From: Candidatus Lokiarchaeum ossiferum
GTDB lineage: Archaea > Asgardarchaeota > Lokiarchaeia > Sigyniarchaeales > Promethearchaeaceae
Reading direction: 5' to 3'
NCBI GenBank assembly: GCA_025839675.1
Contig: CP104013.1
Coordinates: 3,210,001 to 3,242,000, forward strand
DNA: 32,000 bases
In this document: piece after piece, positions 21,123-27,760 of the stretch
How positions within the stretch are numbered: the stretch's first letter is position 1
Layout of the letters: the number at the start of each line of letters is the position of its first letter
Made by a program: the position numbers and the translations under genes
Notes under the pieces: generated by a model
What the model was told of the DNA's origin: nothing
Seen by the model: only the letters and a program-made list of their open reading frames with translations
Databases searched by the model: none

Positions 21123-21542
21123 ATGAACGATCCCGAATGTTTATTTTGTAAAATTCTTGCTGGTGAGATCCCTAGTTACAAGGTTTTTGAATCAGAATTT
21201 ACCCTTGCTTTTTTAGATATTGCACCTGTAAGTGAAGGCCACACAGTTGTGATTCCTAAAAATCATTATTACAATCTTCTTGATATCCCAGAAAATGAGA
21301 TTCTACCATTTTTTAATGATTTAAAAACAGTTGCAAATCTTATCAAGACAAAACTTGGTTGTGAAGGATTTAATATTGTTCAAAATAATTTCCCTGCGGC
21401 GGGGCAGGTGATTCCTCACTTTCATTTTCACATTTGGCCTCGTATTTCAAGTGATAAACTCTCTCATTTTCAGCGAAATCCTGAAATTGCAAATAAGGAA
21501 GAGATTGAATCAGTTTTTAAGAAATTTACCAATGATTATTAA
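21123..21542 (+). CDS. HIT-family (histidine triad) nucleotide hydrolase/transferase
   Basis: CLFCKILAGEIP N-terminus and the histidine triad HFHFHIWPR. The ATG at 21123 is preferred to the TTG at 21114. Confidence 0.88.
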   Translation: MNDPECLFCKILAGEIPSYKVFESEFTLAFLDIAPVSEGHTVVIPKNHYYNLLDIPENEILPFFNDLKTVANLIKTKLGCEGFNIVQNNFPAAGQVIPHFHFHIWPRISSDKLSHFQRNPEIANKEEIESVFKKFTNDY

Positions 21543-21781
21543 AAACCAATAATCTTATTCTTTCGTAAAAACCAATTTGGAAGTTGAATCACCTGAGTTT
21601 CATCTAAAATTAACGAAAGATCATTTTTTACAATATATTTTGGCACAATTATTCTTCGTTTGAGAGTATCGACATAAATATGAAAAAATTTTGTATCAAT
21701 TTCTTTAATTTTACCATTAATTTGTGAATATTCTTCTCCGTACAATATCATAGTCAATAGCTTATCTTGAACATCCGACAA
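21539..21781 (-). CDS. hypothetical small protein
   Basis: 80 aa ORF, convergent with the HIT gene and overlapping its end by 4 nt. No motif recognised. Confidence 0.35.
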   Translation of the reverse strand: MSDVQDKLLTMILYGEEYSQINGKIKEIDTKFFHIYVDTLKRRIIVPKYIVKNDLSLILDETQVIQLPNWFLRKNKIIGF

Positions 21782-22059
21782 TAAAAAAAGGGAGAGGGTG
21801 ATGACTTTTTAAAATAAAAGGATGACCCTTTCATCCCAGATTTCTTCAATTTAGATATTTCCGAGTGGAATTTGAATAGATTTCAGCGTAACTATAAAAA
21901 GTCATAAATTAAACTTAAACTTAATTTCCAATTTTTTTTCTATCGTCATCAATCTATCCACTGATCGGTATCAGAACCACAAATCGTGTTCTTAAATATG
22001 GAAAGTAATAGGACTTTTTATATTTACTCTAAAAGATTTACATTCTGAGATTTAGAAAA

Positions 22060-24507
22060 TCAGAGAAAATTTTTGATTGAAAGTTGTTTAGGAAGACTTT
22101 GCCCGATAAATGGAAGATTACATTGTAATAACTGCATTTTTATCTCATTGGACAAGACAAATGGAACCATATTAACAAAAGCTCGCAATAAAAGTTCTTT
22201 ATACTTCCCAATATCATAATTCTTACCGCGTTCACGATAAATTTGAACAGGTAAAACTCGATCCATTTTATTAGGGGCACAATCATCTACAATAATAAAC
22301 GAGATTTTTTGTCCTGCTCCTAGCGGTAAACCCGCCATTTGTAAATGCTTGGCTGCTATTGCTTGATAGTTCAACACACTATATTGTTCTGGTCGACGAG
22401 TCAAACGAATATTTACTGCCAGATCATCAATACTAACGGTACCCGATTCTAAATATGCAACATATTTTTTAAACACAGGAATAATAGTCTGTTTCAACAG
22501 CTGATCAAAGTTATGCCTGTAAGAGGAAGAGCCAATAACACGCATTAATTCTTCTTGAAATTTTTTAATTAAAATAGGTGAATCATGCCTTCTAAGCTCT
22601 AAGCCTCGAACTTTTGCTTTTCCTGAAGGTTTTATCCCCCAATAACGATTAAGAGCACCAATTAATGGATCTGCTTTTGTTGGTAAAAAAGAAATAAACT
22701 GGAAGTAATCTTTCGTAGAATCATAAGAAATGGGAATATTTGTTCTTTGTGTGATTTCTTGAGTAATTTTTTGACATTCTGCATGAAAATTCTCCATACT
22801 CATTGATTGAGGGGATTGGACGTAGAGTGAATCAACAATTCCATGTAAGTAGTGAATTCCATGTTTTTCAACTATCTCCATACCATCTATCAGAAATTCT
22901 CGAGCATAAGCACAAACTGCTTGATGAGCCTCAATACGGCCAAATCGAGCATTTCGAAATCCAAGATATCCAAAGCAAACAACTAATATCCATTTCAGCG
23001 CAGTTTGCATTTGATCATATTTCTTTTTTATTCTTCCGTGGCTGGAAATTGCCAATTTTTTGTAATGCATGCGCTTAGTTAACGGGAGACGCAAGGAAAG
23101 AGGCACAACCCCAGTTCGTTTTTTACACGTATAATAAGATAATCCTGGAACTTTGATACCATCTTGCTTACAGCAAGGGCAATTTAAGGTTTCAGGAGAA
23201 ACATTATAAAAAACCATCAAGCTAGGATACATTGACGTGAAATCGAGTTCAGCAACCCGATCAAACATCCCAACTTGAGGGTTTAAAATGTGTCCCCCTC
23301 GATCTGAAAGCAAAAGATTCCATCCATTTCGGAAGATTTCTGCATTCTTTTTTTCCTCTGGAATTAAAATTCCTTGCTTAAAAGCGTGATAAAACTGAAT
23401 TGACTGAAGAGCTCCCCCAATAGTTATACGTGTAAGTCTCTGGAGAGTGATATATGAAATACGCGCGATCTCAACGATTCCATTAATATTTCCATCATCG
23501 AAATGCAAAGATCCCATGATGCTAGAATTAATGTGAAGCCTTCCATTCAAATAGAACTGATTTTTGCTTCGATGGATGATTTGTCCGTAAGAAAAATAGC
23601 TATCAGCACCATTCATCCTGAACCGGGTTGATTTTAAAGGAGTCGAATCCCGAGAAAGTGTGAATGAATTGATAAGATCCAAAAAAGAACAACGAGATAA
23701 CAAGTAAGGAAAAATAGTTTCATCACCCTTATGTGTAAAAATGACATCTGGATCGATACGCTTTATTGCAACTTGCAAGAATTCAAGAGTTTCATATTCT
23801 GAAGATTCTTGAATAATTATTTGTTGAGCACCATGTTCATCCTGGAAAATCATATCACGCGAAAATCTTAGAGAAAGATCGATAGGTGAACTATCGGGAT
23901 CTAATGTTAATTTTATACTATGGAGAGAATCAGAAGTGCTAGTCACAAAATTATGTGATTTCGATTGAATTTCCATCCAAATAATTCGTAATGGAGGAAG
24001 ATCATAGTCAATAGCTTCATTTGAATCAGCTAATTGTATAGAAGAAATAAACAATTGTGAGTTTTTTTTCTTGAAACCAACCCTGACTTTTCCAAATGGA
24101 AACAAATCTGTTGAATAAAAGAAGATCTGTACAAGAGGCAAATCTACATTGAACAGTTCAAAAATGTTCAACCTTCGAATCGTTTCTACTGTTTTTTTAA
24201 ACTTAAAAGGAGATTGAACAACTATTTTTAGACAAGGGGAGGGAATAATTGCTTCAGCTCTAATTCTGCGATCACATATATTAACTTCACAAATATCAGG
24301 ATGTGATCTGATCTGAGCTATTTTTTCTTGATATTTTTGTTCAGAAGATGGAGAAATACTAAAAGGAAAAGAAGCATAGAAAAAAGGATGAAAGGAACGA
24401 ATTCCTGCAATTACATCACCTGAAGGAAGTTTAAGCCAAATCTTAATTCCTTCTTTGTGGATTTGGGCATCCAAAATCCATGCATCATATAATTTTGAAG
24501 ATTTCAT
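22060..24507 (-). CDS. polB: family B DNA polymerase, divergent: exonuclease motifs lost, polymerase motifs B and C altered (PolB2/'inactivated PolB'-like)
   Basis: 815 aa, collinear by eye with archaeal PolB. The N-terminus is WILDAQIHKEG.., and motif A is intact (LDFTSMYPS). Motif B reads KWILVVCFGYLG instead of KxxxNSxYG, and motif C reads LHGIVDSL instead of YxDTDS. The Exo I position reads IIWMEI instead of FDIE, and Exo II reads KGDETIFPYL instead of NGDxFDxPYL. The Exo III region is largely absent. The C-terminal QLSIKNFL is a PIP box. Confidence 0.85.
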   Translation of the reverse strand: MKSSKLYDAWILDAQIHKEGIKIWLKLPSGDVIAGIRSFHPFFYASFPFSISPSSEQKYQEKIAQIRSHPDICEVNICDRRIRAEAIIPSPCLKIVVQSPFKFKKTVETIRRLNIFELFNVDLPLVQIFFYSTDLFPFGKVRVGFKKKNSQLFISSIQLADSNEAIDYDLPPLRIIWMEIQSKSHNFVTSTSDSLHSIKLTLDPDSSPIDLSLRFSRDMIFQDEHGAQQIIIQESSEYETLEFLQVAIKRIDPDVIFTHKGDETIFPYLLSRCSFLDLINSFTLSRDSTPLKSTRFRMNGADSYFSYGQIIHRSKNQFYLNGRLHINSSIMGSLHFDDGNINGIVEIARISYITLQRLTRITIGGALQSIQFYHAFKQGILIPEEKKNAEIFRNGWNLLLSDRGGHILNPQVGMFDRVAELDFTSMYPSLMVFYNVSPETLNCPCCKQDGIKVPGLSYYTCKKRTGVVPLSLRLPLTKRMHYKKLAISSHGRIKKKYDQMQTALKWILVVCFGYLGFRNARFGRIEAHQAVCAYAREFLIDGMEIVEKHGIHYLHGIVDSLYVQSPQSMSMENFHAECQKITQEITQRTNIPISYDSTKDYFQFISFLPTKADPLIGALNRYWGIKPSGKAKVRGLELRRHDSPILIKKFQEELMRVIGSSSYRHNFDQLLKQTIIPVFKKYVAYLESGTVSIDDLAVNIRLTRRPEQYSVLNYQAIAAKHLQMAGLPLGAGQKISFIIVDDCAPNKMDRVLPVQIYRERGKNYDIGKYKELLLRAFVNMVPFVLSNEIKMQLLQCNLPFIGQSLPKQLSIKNFL

Positions 24508-24578
24508 AATGTCACTTCATCTCAAATCATTTTACTTCTTCAAGTAAACAGTAACTTTCTAGTTTTGTTTTTCTTGCT

Positions 24579-25403
24579 TTATCGCATCAATTTTTTTGTA
24601 AAAAATGAATCCAAAGTAGTTGTTTGAGATTTAACACCACCCCGTGATGAATTTAACCTCCCCTTTTTTATTTCAGCAGGTTTCCAAGATCTTTGCACAT
24701 TATATGAATAAAAAGGATGTTGATCTAAAGAATATTCAATAAAACGTGGAAATTCTCGAACTCCAATTATAATATTGCTGAAATGTGAAAGTAATTTTCC
24801 TCCAGCAGGCCGATAATTTGACTTAGAATGACGAGGTCCTGTTAAAACGATGATTGGATTAGAATGCTGGGTAATACGTTTCAATCCCAAAAAAATCCGA
24901 TTTAAATCGTTATATGTTTTGATATTCAACAAATTTATCTGTGAGGATGAAACATTTTGAGAGAGATTTTCTTCGAACATCGATGTTAATCCAGCAACTA
25001 AGATTAAATCAATCTTTTCGTCAGTCTGAAGTATCAACTTCTCCTCCATCAATTCAACCATTTGATTCCAAGTAAAAGCCCGAGCAACGAGGATTTGCTG
25101 GAGAACAAATTCAGGATTAAGACCATTTGATATGGCCATCTTTGAAATCCAATATGGATTGAAACGGTTTTCTCCATCAACATATAATACACGATTCGAA
25201 GCTAATCCACCATCAACAGAAGATTTGAATGAATTCACAGCCGTTTTCATCAATATTACAGAAAGGTGTTGTTTGGCCCCATGTAGAAAATGAACCAGCC
25301 CTGGAAGAAATCCTCCTCCTAACAGTTTATTCAAAAAAATATCACCGCTGGACAATGAATGTTGTTTATTAATTTGGCTTAAATATTCAGATGCAGAAAT
25401 CAT
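24579..25403 (-). CDS. RadA/Rad51-superfamily paralog with degenerate Walker A and Walker B (predicted ATPase-dead)
   Basis: 274 aa. RadA/Rad51 landmarks are LNKLLGGGFLPGLVHFLHG (cf. LDxLLGGGIxxGxITExxG), RVLYVDGENRFNP (cf. YIDTEGTFRPER) and ILVARAFTWNQ (cf. YARAYNxxHQ). The P-loop position reads HGAKQHLS (no GxxGxGKT/S), and the Walker B position reads LILVAGLT (no Asp). Confidence 0.72.
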   Translation of the reverse strand: MISASEYLSQINKQHSLSSGDIFLNKLLGGGFLPGLVHFLHGAKQHLSVILMKTAVNSFKSSVDGGLASNRVLYVDGENRFNPYWISKMAISNGLNPEFVLQQILVARAFTWNQMVELMEEKLILQTDEKIDLILVAGLTSMFEENLSQNVSSSQINLLNIKTYNDLNRIFLGLKRITQHSNPIIVLTGPRHSKSNYRPAGGKLLSHFSNIIIGVREFPRFIEYSLDQHPFYSYNVQRSWKPAEIKKGRLNSSRGGVKSQTTTLDSFFTKKLMR

Positions 25404-25793
25404 ATTGAGGAAACACTATCCAACTATAATCTATGTTATATCATCAAGAAGGGTCTGTGAAATATTAAATATGGTGAGCCGACAGAATTTTTTATTTACT
25501 TAAAATCCGTCAATTTCTCCCCATCAATTTGAAATAGCCTAAAAAACAAATTATTTAGCTACAAACATTCATAGGGGTTCGTTAAATGCAAGAGAGAGAT
25601 AACAATGGAAGTAGAAAAAAATATATGCGATTTCAAAAGAATAAATGTCCGACAAAAAATAGACAAGCCATTTGAGAATTAAAAATTCAATATATTCCAA
25701 ATAGATTAACAAAAAATTATTGTCCATTTTTTTTTTTCCATCAAGTGTTCACAAATCTAAATTTTGAAATCCGAAAGTGCATTGTTCATTCAT

Positions 25794-27236
25794 ATGAAAT
25801 CAAATTTTGCGTTTATTGGTTTTATGGGGACAGGAAAATCGACCGTAGCAAAATTATTCTCTCAACAATTTAACCTAAAATTTGTGGAAATTGATGCAGT
25901 GATTGAAAAAAAGGCAAAAAGAACAATTCCTGAAATTTTTCATGAAGGAGAAGAGATATTTCGGAAATATGAATCAGAAGTTATTATTGAAAGCACAAGT
26001 TTAAGCAATACTTGTATATCTTGCGGCGGTGGAGCCATATTAGATAAAATCAATAGAGAGTATTTATCAAAATCATCCATAATCATATTGTTAGAAGCGA
26101 CACCCTCCACAATTTTTCAACGAATAAAAGAAGAAGGGATTAAAAAGAGACCCCTTCTTAATAAAGAAGATCCGATTAAAGAAATTACAAATTTACTCAT
26201 TTCACGACAAGAATTATATCATGAAGTGGCAGATATAATAATTAGTACAGATGACAAGACTTTAGAACAAATTATCAATGAAATTGTCGAAAATCTTGAA
26301 AAAAATGATGATGAAAACTTGGTTGATGTGGATTTGGAAGTAGCATTTAATCAAATTAAAGAAGAAATCTCTCAAAAAAAAGAGACTAATAAAAAAACGA
26401 TCAATTATTATTGCAAAATCTGTGGAAAAAAGCAGGAAATGAAGAAAACTAAATTTTGTAAGGTTTGCAAAATTCCTGTATGCAAAAAATGTCGGAATGG
26501 TCAATTTTGTATTAATTGTTGGGTAAATTTCAAAGAAGATCCTCGAAAAACAATCAAATTAACTCAAACTTTGGCATTATTTATTCCCTTTATTACTGTT
26601 TTTATTTTGTTAAGTGATGTAATTCGATATTTTATTACAAATATAGTAATTATTTCTATTTTACTCCTGATTTCCTTTGTTGCAAGGTTTCAGATAATTA
26701 AAAATCCAACAAAGTTCATTGAACTGAGCTGGTGGCAAAATACTCAAACTGAAAAATATCAAGAAATTTTGAATCCTTTGACACCTGAACGTTATATAAA
26801 TAAAGAATTGATCCAAAATTATCAAGATCAAAAACAAAAAAAAATCAAGAAACTAAAAAATTGGATTGAAATGGGTGATCAATTAGCAAATATTCCAATC
26901 CCAGCCCATTATGAAGATAAAAAACTGCATAAGGGAGATATTTCAGAATATTCAGAAGCTGAATTAGTTTCGACAATTGAAAATCTTGACAAAAATGCAG
27001 ATAGAAAGAAATGGGAATATTTGTTAATTGACAAACCTTGTCCAAAGTGCCAATCTATTATTAAATTTGCAGATTTTTGTATTGAGTGTAATGAGAGATA
27101 TTGCCCTAAATGTGGAGAAAATTCCGATTCGTATTCTTTGAAATGTATTTGTGGATATAATTTCGAACCACTCCCTAGCGAGTTCATGAAATGGACTAAT
27201 ACAAATGAAGTTTTATTCCAAAAAAAAAAAGATTGA
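25794..27236 (+). CDS. AroK-type (P-loop) shikimate kinase domain fused to an 8-Cys zinc module, two TM helices and a C-terminal double zinc ribbon
   Basis: The N-terminal roughly 170 aa carry Walker A GFMGTGKST, EID, GEEIFRKYE, CGGGA and KKRPLL, all in the order of AroK/AroL shikimate kinases. Next comes CKICG-x11-CKVC-x4-CKKC-x5-CINC, then hydrophobic segments LALFIPFITVFILL and IVIISILLLISFVA. The C-terminus has CPKC-x9-CIEC-x4-CPKC-x10-CIC. The ATG at 25794 is preferred to the TTG at 25764. Confidence 0.75.
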   Translation: MKSNFAFIGFMGTGKSTVAKLFSQQFNLKFVEIDAVIEKKAKRTIPEIFHEGEEIFRKYESEVIIESTSLSNTCISCGGGAILDKINREYLSKSSIIILLEATPSTIFQRIKEEGIKKRPLLNKEDPIKEITNLLISRQELYHEVADIIISTDDKTLEQIINEIVENLEKNDDENLVDVDLEVAFNQIKEEISQKKETNKKTINYYCKICGKKQEMKKTKFCKVCKIPVCKKCRNGQFCINCWVNFKEDPRKTIKLTQTLALFIPFITVFILLSDVIRYFITNIVIISILLLISFVARFQIIKNPTKFIELSWWQNTQTEKYQEILNPLTPERYINKELIQNYQDQKQKKIKKLKNWIEMGDQLANIPIPAHYEDKKLHKGDISEYSEAELVSTIENLDKNADRKKWEYLLIDKPCPKCQSIIKFADFCIECNERYCPKCGENSDSYSLKCICGYNFEPLPSEFMKWTNTNEVLFQKKKD

Positions 27237-27334: not shown

Positions 27335-27760
27335 GTGAAGAATTTGTCAGAAATACAACTTGATAAAGATTTGCAAATAGATTTACATCGAATGTTGGAG
27401 TTACTTGAAAGTTCGACGGATTTAGAGGGAACGGCTTTAGTAACAAAAACAGGCCTTAGAATAGCGAGTTCTACTCACGCTTCTACAGATGTTGATCAAC
27501 ACAGTGCAAGTCCAGCAACTTTAGTCTCTTTGGCAAATAAAGTATCTCAAGGATTGGATTTTGGAAATTTAAAACAGTTAGTAGTAACGGGCGAAAATGG
27601 CTACACAATAATTACAACTACTGAAGAAAGCAAATTTATGTTACTTTCCCATAGCAAACGCGCATCTACATTGGGATATTACTTTCATCGCTTGTCAAAA
27701 GCTTTTGGAAAATTAGTTGCCCTCTTGGTTGATATCCAAATCGGGGAAGCGACTTATTAA
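27335..27760 (+). CDS. Roadblock/LC7 (MglB-like) domain protein
   Basis: 141 aa. The pattern LLESSTDLEGTALVTKTGLRIASS...LKQLVVTGENGYTIITT matches the Roadblock/LC7 alpha-beta fold consensus. The track start is GTG at 27335, and the start is uncertain. Confidence 0.72.
   Translation: MKNLSEIQLDKDLQIDLHRMLELLESSTDLEGTALVTKTGLRIASSTHASTDVDQHSASPATLVSLANKVSQGLDFGNLKQLVVTGENGYTIITTTEESKFMLLSHSKRASTLGYYFHRLSKAFGKLVALLVDIQIGEATY

Follow-up and report, generated by a model that had tools for sequence, protein, structure and literature searches.

A pair of adjacent genes in Candidatus Lokiarchaeum ossiferum very probably (we put the probability at about 0.85) codes for PolB2, a Dpo2-type DNA polymerase, and its dedicated partner iRadA, which are two of three subunits that make up the archaeal PolB2 "mutasome". 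The first-pass annotation had offered this locus as a candidate undescribed module, a suggestion that does not survive comparison with the literature. The linkage of PolB2 to an inactivated RadA was reported in 2013–2014, and Makarova, Krupovic & Koonin described in 2014 its linkage to both inactivated RadA and arCOG07300 (PMC4104785). The complex and its clamp-binding tails followed in 2025, when Timinskas, Timinskas & Venclovas, with Lokiarchaeota operons in their dataset, presented a computational model of a PolB2:iRadA:PPB2x3 heteropentamer, the "mutasome" (PMC11791011). Hence the pairing of PolB2 with an ATPase-dead RadA is already published, and the window (the whole 32-kb stretch of DNA that was analysed) contains an ordinary example of it; the only unusual point at the locus is that PPB2, the third subunit, is missing.

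Layout and genomic context of the locus

The two minus-strand genes are as they were first described. The iRadA gene lies at 24579–25403 (minus strand; 274 aa), 71 nt upstream of the PolB2 gene at 22060–24507 (minus strand; 815 aa). The spacer between them (24508–24578) stands where canonical operons have PPB2; it has no PPB2 coding capacity and shows homology to the 3′ portion of a 112-nt spacer in one relative (L001). The long non-coding borders seen at first reading are also real: downstream of PolB2, 278 nt separate it from the next ORF, and upstream of iRadA the distance to the shikimate-kinase ORF is 390 nt to its first ATG or 360 nt to its first TTG. A terminator-like hairpin followed by a T-run (21819–21837, minus strand), lying 223 nt beyond the PolB2 stop, may possibly mark the end of the transcription unit; it comes from a scan based on consensus only, which returned 4 sites where 2.4 were expected. 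The iRadA protein matches, at 100% identity, NEF87_002741 of Ca. Lokiarchaeum ossiferum, which the public record labels "hypothetical protein".

Both proteins belong to Asgard branches of their families, with matches to the proteins of comparison loci at E-values of 1e-188 to 1e-302 for PolB2 and mostly 1e-43 to 1e-87 for iRadA. The first-pass annotation had made its reading depend on the co-occurrence of the two families in other genomes, and they do co-occur, the pairing recurring in dozens of Asgard genomes.

Stand-alone archaeal PolB genes are often element-borne. That background, which includes the casposons (PMC4104785), and the 278-nt and 360-nt non-coding gaps that flank the cassette would suit a PolB of a mobile element or virus (of the casposon, pPolB or provirus type) lying beside a RadA-like gene by chance. 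Such an origin is nevertheless highly improbable in light of the genomic context. As first noted, the neighbours are housekeeping genes (SKI, HIT, NIF3, ThyX and similar), and the order SKI / iRadA-PolB2 / HIT-NIF3-ThyX-DUF2095 is kept in relatives that share only about 55% identity in PolB2. Among the neighbours there are no integrase, Cas1 or terminal-protein genes and no tRNA was found, the G+C content of the locus is unremarkable, and the recurrence of the pairing across Asgard genomes likewise argues against a chance association.

An exonuclease-dead polymerase, probably of the PolB2 group

The identity of the 815-aa product as a family B DNA polymerase with a degenerate exonuclease domain is supported by several comparisons. 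It matches Pfam DNA_pol_B (1.3e-28) and DNA_pol_B_exo1 (1.3e-7) as well as PolB structures in the PDB (down to 1e-35). Its best NCBIfam match is NF004416 (2.9e-100), which at 336 bits, together with NF004418 at 300 bits, stands above the "polymerase I" models (≤156 bits), although all of these scores fall under the model cutoffs. Furthermore, it shares 40.6% identity (phmmer 7e-188) with the PolB2 of locus L012, whose motif-C block and C-terminal PIP (KSGLDKYF) are the same as those of a Lokiarchaeota operon in the 2025 study; the supplement of that study includes a Lokiarchaeota operon of type 1a whose "IVD" block differs little from that of the window (PMC11791011).

The catalytic motifs, called from HMMER alignments to Pyrococcus/Thermococcus PolB (P. 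abyssi, 9°N) and from a 73-sequence family alignment, agree with the initial description of a polymerase that retains the Asp of motif A and the second Asp of motif C, has non-canonical motifs B and C and has lost Exo I, II and III. Motif A (D422-FTSMYPS, residues 422–429; 23221–23244, minus strand) is intact. In motif C (G-I557-V558-D559-S; 22828–22842, minus strand) DTD has become IVD with the second Asp kept, such that both metal-ligand aspartates, D422 and D559, are present. Motif B reads K505-WILVVCFGY, where other residues stand in for the N, S and Y of KxxxNSxYG. In the exonuclease domain the loss of Exo II is solid, as a significant HMMER alignment places K260-GDETI265-F against NGDNFDF with the catalytic Asp changed to I265. 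The Exo I and Exo III stretches lie outside any significant HMMER alignment and were read by eye, guided by the family alignment; W-M-E179-I-Q181 takes the place of F-D-I-E in Exo I, and both the Y and the D of Exo III are replaced.

It is worth considering whether a protein so altered is still an enzyme. The original idea of an inactive PolB2 reportedly goes back to Rogozin in 2008. Extended to this locus, it would make both proteins enzymatically dead, with a structural or regulatory role in replication regulation or fork handling but none in making DNA; the replaced first Asp of motif C, the replaced N, S and Y of motif B and the dead exonuclease all fit, and regulatory roles for inactive PolB2 were weighed in the 2014 paper (PMC4104785). 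However, we find this unlikely. The Dpo2 enzymes of S. islandicus and S. solfataricus, which have IID in motif C (as given for S. islandicus in PMC11791011), are robust polymerases that are required for damage-induced mutagenesis, and Sulfolobus Dpo2 is a damage-inducible, exonuclease-minus extender of mismatches and lesions that is needed for targeted mutagenesis (PMC7390963, PMC8764526). Across the displayed Asgard members of the family, neither motif A nor the metal-ligand aspartates vary, and the neighbourhood contains no orc1/cdc6 gene.

A further element of PolB2 may bear on how the complex is put together. At 23299–23334 (minus strand), ahead of motif A, the protein has an FxxA/G-like loop, F392-R-N-G395, followed by S-D402-R403-GGH. 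In the published model a loop of this FxxA-like kind docks PolB2 onto iRadA, and the D(K/R) touches the N-terminal arm of PPB2 (PMC11791011). Both F-x-x-A/G and DRGGH are kept in 16 of the 16 rows displayed from the 73-sequence alignment, including those from loci that lack PPB2.

A RadA-core partner without ATPase motifs

The product of the upstream gene corresponds to the inactivated RadA partner of PolB2 (arCOG04294/07763/08101). It has a Pfam Rad51 match (3e-14), and its HMMER alignment to the 349-aa P. furiosus RadA (1pzn) starts at residue 99 of the latter; it is thus a paralog of the RadA/Rad51 core in which the N-terminal HhH/polymerisation domain is missing. The scaffold had been described as lacking the Walker A Lys and the Walker B Asp, and the HMMER alignment bears this out. 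At the degenerate Walker A position (25257–25280, minus strand) G42-A-K-Q-H-L-S48-V49 aligns with GEFGSGKT of 1pzn, with S48 for the Lys and V49 for the Thr, and at the Walker B position (L133-I-L-V-A137; 24993–25007, minus strand) LILVAG aligns with LLIVDS, with A137 for the Asp. These losses are common to the iRadA family: a GK[ST] at the Walker A position occurs in 0 of 22 aligned homologs, and the family consensus at Walker B is LVxGxTSMFEE. The possibility, raised in the first-pass annotation, that an intact P-loop or intact exonuclease motifs had been misaligned by eye was not borne out for the P-loop and Exo II, neither of which is intact in the HMMER alignments; Exo I and Exo III were again read by eye.

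An AlphaFold2 model of iRadA (pLDDT 80, pTM 0.77) has RAD51, RadA and DMC1 as its top PDB matches in Foldseek (TMq ~0.72), mostly from filament structures. Residues 246–264 of the model are of low confidence and are followed by a predicted helix at 264–273.

PIP-like tails on both subunits

The C-termini that had first been called PIP-like turn out to be conserved features. The iRadA tail reads Q260-TTTLDSFF268-TKKLMR, its PIP-like box (24600–24626, minus strand) ending six residues ahead of the C-terminus; the box adjoins the low-confidence stretch of the model, reaches into the predicted helix and includes L264 and D265, which are nearly invariant in the family. In PolB2 the PIP box, Q808-LSIKNFL815 (22063–22086, minus strand), is directly followed by the stop, and QKDLSCFI-type C-termini are found in most Asgard PolB2 proteins. 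A PIP-like regular expression matches 62 of 73 Asgard PolB2 tails vs 3.7% of interior 20-aa windows, and 55 of 58 Asgard iRadA tails (of the NxTLDxW[FIL] type) vs 1% of such windows. Because the tail match rates in Asgard relatives are so far above those of interior windows, the PIP-like tails are, as judged from these sequences, no chance matches.

Both subunits carry such tails in 45 of 53 Asgard loci. The 2025 study described clamp-binding motifs for iRadA as well as for PolB2, but "rarely both" overall and in just a small fraction of PolB2 proteins (PMC11791011). Within the Asgard archaea, these counts suggest that a PolB2 complex with a PIP tail on each subunit is usually the rule and not the exception.

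The missing third subunit

PPB2 (arCOG07300; Pfam PF26485, DUF8156) is a protein of about 90 aa with an N-terminal MGRT arm. Among the 80 best PPB2-bearing loci of the species genome collection, 75 have a PolB2 match, and in 74 of these 75 PPB2 is directly upstream of PolB2, with iRadA adjacent or within a few kb. An HMM built from 37 Asgard sequences (run with --max) and tblastn, applied to six-frame translations, gave no PPB2 match in the window, 32 kb of a 6-Mb chromosome, or in stretches of 8.6–15.8 kb from relatives L001, L002 and L003, while L004, L005 and L006 were recovered at 1e-43. PPB2 is therefore absent from the locus in three lineages, represented by the window, L001 and L002/L003. 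This qualifies the initial description of a two-protein unit: the iRadA-PolB2 pair stands, but the known system includes one more subunit, which this locus does not encode.

One way to read this absence is that the Lokiarchaeum lineage lost PPB2 and uses a two-subunit PolB2-iRadA heterodimer tethered to PCNA by the two PIP tails. No PPB2 lies between the genes in any of the three lineages, and in L002 iRadA even overlaps PolB2 by 8 nt. Two protein searches, which also missed the PPB2 of P. syntrophicum MK-D1, recovered none attributable to L. ossiferum, and Dpo2 isolated from its partners shows activity in vitro (PMC11791011). We nonetheless regard the loss as doubtful, though not far-fetched, given that even proteins from PPB2-less loci keep an invariant D(K/R), the motif in contact with the PPB2 arm. 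In addition, a stand-alone PPB2 gene occurs in P. syntrophicum MK-D1, in Harpocratesius and in relatives, the Promethearchaeum genomes among them coming from cultured as well as uncultured archaea, and because PPB2 is unlinked in these related genomes, its absence from the locus is not equivalent to its absence from the genome. The invariant D(K/R) and the stand-alone genes of the relatives together suggest that L. ossiferum, too, most likely has its PPB2 gene at another site in the genome.

Discussion

The locus is most readily understood as part of a three-subunit PolB2 complex, and a tentative mode of action can be put forward from the literature on the family. In this view iRadA would bind the FxxA/G-like loop of PolB2 (F392–G395) as one Rad51 protomer binds the next, with the MGRT arm of a PPB2 trimer, probably encoded outside the locus, inserted between PolB2 and iRadA. 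One or both PIP tails may attach the complex to PCNA where a primer terminus has stalled, and there PolB2, lacking proofreading, could extend mismatched or lesion-paired termini as S. islandicus Dpo2 does; by the same analogy, its expression is probably damage-inducible. The catalytic activity of the window's PolB2 is extrapolated here from Sulfolobus, and its motif B (KWILVVCFGY) is strongly non-canonical. The first-pass annotation had proposed a dead Rad51-like partner and an exonuclease-less PolB, tethered to PCNA and acting in damage tolerance; this is essentially the published model (PMC4104785, PMC11791011, PMC7390963, PMC8764526), which it re-derived from raw sequence alone.

The main value of these observations lies in annotation: NEF87_002741 can be named iRadA, and the adjacent gene PolB2 (a Dpo2-type translesion polymerase). 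As one of the few cultured Asgard archaea, L. ossiferum is also a possible test system for the PolB2 mutasome model, which is purely computational. One could ask in this organism if the complex depends on PPB2 and if a single PCNA ring can be engaged by two PIP tails. If the loss of PPB2 were true, the PPB2 trimer of the heteropentamer model would be dispensable in a cultured Asgard archaeon.

It is informative to compare this system with other polymerase complexes. In E. coli Pol V (UmuD′2C-RecA), a translesion polymerase also binds a RecA/Rad51-family protein, using an oligomerisation motif of the filament type, and it operates alongside the sliding clamp and a small oligomeric subunit (PMC11791011). 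However, catalysis in Pol V is of the Y family, its RecA is the active recombinase itself, in contrast to a dedicated dead paralog such as iRadA, and the small subunits of the two complexes are without homology. Pol zeta resembles the PolB2 complex as a B-family, exonuclease-dead, multi-subunit extender polymerase, and the Shu complex and Rad51 paralogs, which the first-pass annotation had brought up, resemble iRadA as ATPase-poor mediators of damage tolerance with a Rad51 fold. Neither is known to be orthologous to PolB2-iRadA, and the iRadA model lies closest in Foldseek to RAD51, RadA and DMC1 chains. To our knowledge, Shu proteins are not polymerase subunits.

With the PolB2-iRadA-PPB2 operon the window shares adjacent, co-oriented genes, a PolB2 in which motif C is of the IVD type, the exonuclease is dead and D(K/R)GG is conserved, a RadA-core partner without ATPase motifs or N-terminal domain, and C-terminal clamp-binding motifs; it differs in having PIP-like tails on both subunits and no PPB2 between or near the two genes. 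The Dpo2 of S. islandicus and Saccharolobus solfataricus likewise belongs to the PolB2 group, with the first Asp of motif C changed to Ile and no exonuclease catalytic residues, but the Sulfolobus enzyme has undergone more structural decay (PMC11791011), whereas the exonuclease domain of the 815-aa window protein is full length and not truncated. Although its host is a distantly related thermophilic crenarchaeote, Dpo2 provides the experimentally supported functional template for the polymerase described here.

A known PolB2–iRadA module in Lokiarchaeum

The locus formed by iRadA, an ATPase-dead RadA/Rad51 paralog (24579–25403(−)), and PolB2, a Dpo2-type family B polymerase (22060–24507(−)), is a member of the known PolB2–iRadA(–PPB2) translesion-polymerase module. 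The first-pass annotation had put this pairing forward as a candidate undescribed module, a novelty claim that is untenable given its description in two papers (PMC4104785, PMC11791011). Specifically, in 2014 Makarova, Krupovic and Koonin reported predicted operons combining an “inactivated” PolB2, an inactivated RadA family (arCOG07763/04294/08101) and arCOG07300, a small helical protein; they credited a 2013 paper with first reporting the linkage and proposed a damage-response complex (PMC4104785). Timinskas, Timinskas and Venclovas (2025) coined the names iRadA and PPB2, the latter for the small third subunit, and modelled a PolB2:iRadA:PPB2x3 heteropentamer, covering 40 species (PMC11791011). 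On the functional side, Dpo2 of S. islandicus is damage-inducible and needed for targeted mutagenesis (PMC7390963), and in purified form it is a robust polymerase, free of exonuclease activity and able to extend mismatched and lesion-paired termini (PMC8764526). The mechanism suggested from sequence alone, a PCNA-tethered unit of a structural Rad51-like mediator and a proofreading-less polymerase acting in damage tolerance or recombination-associated synthesis, is essentially the model that these four studies present.

Genomic setting

Both reading frames were correctly delimited in the first-pass annotation, and the gaps it gave were reproduced: 71 nt between the two minus-strand genes, 278 nt of non-coding DNA 3′ of PolB2 and 390 nt 5′ of iRadA, the last being 360 or 390 nt depending on the start chosen for the shikimate kinase gene. 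The 274-aa iRadA matches NEF87_002741 from the cultured Asgard archaeon Candidatus Lokiarchaeum ossiferum at 100% identity, and the gene pair is also present in sequencing runs and in a 42-kb Logan contig. The window has a G+C content of ~31%, and the neighbours are housekeeping genes (ribosomal L3/L4, ABCE1, LysRS, PyrI, NFACT, ThyX, NIF3, HIT, shikimate kinase, Roadblock/LC7 and a SelB-like GTPase). The genes of the window include no orc1/cdc6, integrase or Cas1, and tRNA and Rfam scans of the window gave zero matches. A family B polymerase might belong to a mobile element; this housekeeping neighbourhood, together with conserved synteny, excludes that origin for PolB2.

Some features of the surroundings deserve mention in their own right. 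The Roadblock/LC7-domain protein (27335–27760(+), Pfam 3e-13), beside the SelB-like GTPase, keeps the same relative position in two relatives' loci, L001 and L002. The shikimate kinase frame (25764–27236(+)) encodes 490 aa with the kinase domain confined to residues 21–178, and its C-terminal 300 aa carry several CxxC pairs and one hydrophobic stretch; the counterpart has 501 aa in L001, and in L002 and the related locus L004 the kinase is a plain 170-aa protein with separate genes after it. Immediately 5′ of the iRadA start, ~170 nt (25404–25580(−), against L001 7990–8166) are roughly 90% identical and include an A/T-rich TAAATAAAAAA element, and the block has no similarity in L002 or L004. 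We considered a conserved regulatory element here and rejected it, since the block is kept only with L001, a relative that is itself 84–90% identical; recent descent from a shared ancestor is the more probable explanation.

The two proteins

The iRadA product scores as Rad51/RadA (Pfam 3e-14), with NCBIfam RadA models far under their cutoffs. Its HMMER alignment with Pyrococcus furiosus RadA begins only at RadA residue 99, indicating that the N-terminal HhH/polymerisation domain is absent. The loss of the Walker A lysine and Walker B aspartate from a retained RadA/Rad51 scaffold, first noticed by eye, is borne out: the P-loop GEFGSGKT aligns to GAKQHLSV, so that Lys and Thr become S48 and V49, the Walker B aspartate is A137, and these replacements are shared with 22 homologs. 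An AlphaFold2 model (pLDDT 80, pTM 0.77) has a RadA-type alpha/beta core, a low-confidence segment at residues 246–264 and a short helix after it (264–273), and among PDB structures it most closely matches chains of RAD51, RadA and DMC1 (TMq ~0.72). A second, more distant iRadA-like protein of 290 aa, 33% identical to that of the window and terminating in the PIP-like ESTLDNFMR, is encoded in loci L007 (6001–6873) and L008 (2033–2905), where its gene stands alone 5′ of a ribosomal L11-L1-L10-P1 operon with neither PolB2 nor PPB2 within 6 kb.

The downstream product is a full-length family B polymerase, whose motifs were read from alignments to Pyrococcus/Thermococcus PolB and to 72 Asgard homologs. 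They agree with the initial reading of retained motif A and second motif C aspartates, odd motifs B and C and a lost exonuclease: motif A is intact (D422-FTSMYPS), motif B reads KWILVVCFGY, motif C has become IVD and keeps its second Asp (D559), the catalytic Asp of Exo II is I265, and, as aligned by eye with the family alignment as guide, Exo I is E-I-Q and Exo III lacks Tyr and Asp. An older interpretation holds that such proteins are inactive and structural; it is disfavoured, in our analysis, by the Sulfolobus biochemistry and by the strict conservation of both metal-ligand aspartates. Within the window's subclade, PolB2 of locus L009 (5293–7917) still has a canonical DxE in Exo I (W-L-D-I-E) and an Exo II degenerate like the others, which suggests that the exonuclease site has decayed step by step in this clade.

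The surface proposed to hold the complex together is also recognizable. In the published model a PolB2 loop binds iRadA in the manner of the Rad51 oligomerisation motif, and a D(K/R) motif following the loop touches the MGRT N-terminal arm of PPB2 (PMC11791011). The window PolB2 retains F392-R-N-G395, which is FxxA/G among the displayed members of the family, and S-D402-R403-GGH, invariant in that set.

Absence of PPB2 from the locus

The 71-nt spacer is too short to encode PPB2, and an unfiltered six-frame search with a PPB2 HMM gave zero matches in the window, in L001 and in L002/L003. The identical HMM recovers PPB2 at 1e-43 in L004, L005 and L006, all members of the window's PolB2 subclade. 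In L001, a close relative (PolB2 90.6% identical), the spacer is 112 nt with an unrelated 39-codon ORF, and in L002/L003 (~55% identical) iRadA and PolB2 overlap by 8 nt. The flanks, shikimate kinase on one side and HIT-NIF3-ThyX-DUF2095 on the other, are common to all three PPB2-less lineages, making these orthologous loci that have lost PPB2.

Several hiding places were considered and rejected. Among ORFs of at least 20 aa at 21500–22100 and 25380–25800, none has an MGRT start and none is PPB2-like. An 80-aa ORF with a TTG start, 278 nt 3′ of PolB2 (21539–21781(−); L001 11832–12083), is not a relocated PPB2: it matches neither the PPB2 HMM nor Pfam, in a set used without PF26485 where hmmscan of true PPB2 sequences returns only noise, and it is kept only in L001. 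It is a candidate gene, 71% identical in L001 and with a beta-rich look, undetected in any other fetched locus. The 39-aa ORF of the L001 spacer has no detectable similarity to PPB2, and a fusion is contradicted by iRadA and PolB2 lengths equal to those of homologs in PPB2-bearing loci and by the lack of an HMM match inside either.

A PPB2 alignment (A1, 37 Asgard sequences) scanned against one genome per species found 227 loci, the best 80 of which were kept. A PolB2 match is present in 75 of these 80, and PPB2 lies immediately 5′ of PolB2 in 74 of the 75. The window PolB2 matches the proteins of the surveyed loci at E values of 1e-188 to 1e-302, and the window iRadA mostly at 1e-43 to 1e-87. 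The iRadA gene is adjacent, or 0.6–4 kb 5′ beyond unrelated opposite-strand genes, or 3′ on the other strand. The second arrangement, with intervening genes unrelated by inspection, is that of most Asgard loci (for example L013, L017, L020, L035 and L054), where the three genes are therefore neighbours without forming a single operon; a 323-aa ORF and a ~140-aa Cys-rich protein recur in the interval, and a hydrophobic, membrane-like protein is also among the genes there.

PPB2 with an intact MGRT arm also occurs as a stand-alone gene in Promethearchaeum syntrophicum MK-D1 (L080 5001–5285, on the chromosome), Harpocratesius repetitus and several Promethearchaeum MAGs (further stand-alone loci being L066, L077, L081 and L093–L096). 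It adjoins cysS in MK-D1 and close relatives, and the Promethearchaeum-group neighbours are cysS and a TrkA-N gene. PPB2 of MK-D1 itself was not found in the protein collection searched and so may be unannotated there. For L. ossiferum, no PPB2 locus appeared among the best 80 of 227 in the species-genome scan, none was found in protein-index searches, which also missed MK-D1's own PPB2, and two Logan-derived PPB2 matches traced to samples other than L. ossiferum runs. Given the stand-alone genes of relatives and the D(K/R) motif retained in PolB2, it is more likely that PPB2 is supplied from elsewhere in the L. ossiferum genome.

Comparison with the published module

C-terminal PCNA-binding motifs were described on iRadA and less often on PolB2, and both together are rare across all archaea (PMC11791011). 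The PIP-like endings first seen in the window are common among Asgard archaea: a PIP-like pattern matches 62/73 PolB2 tails (typically QKDLSCFI then stop), against 3.7% of interior windows, and 55/58 iRadA tails (typically NxTLDxWF then stop), against 1%. Paired boxes are no special feature of the window: where a locus has both proteins, both subunits carry the motif in 45 of 53 cases. Compared with the all-archaea set, and under a looser pattern than that of PMC11791011, the Asgard archaea seem to depart from the general trend in this respect.

The published supplement already includes Lokiarchaeota operons, one of the type iRadA-PPB2-PolB2 (PMC11791011), which corresponds to our locus L012, where the motif block and the PIP, KSGLDKYF, are identical. 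Its polymerase block ALKWILVVSFGYLGFRNARFG...LHGIVDSMWL closely resembles the window's ALKWILVVCFGYLGFRNARFG...LHGIVDSLYV. The initial interpretation of the gene pair was right in substance and already published, and the PPB2-less operon of L. ossiferum is a minor variation on the known module.
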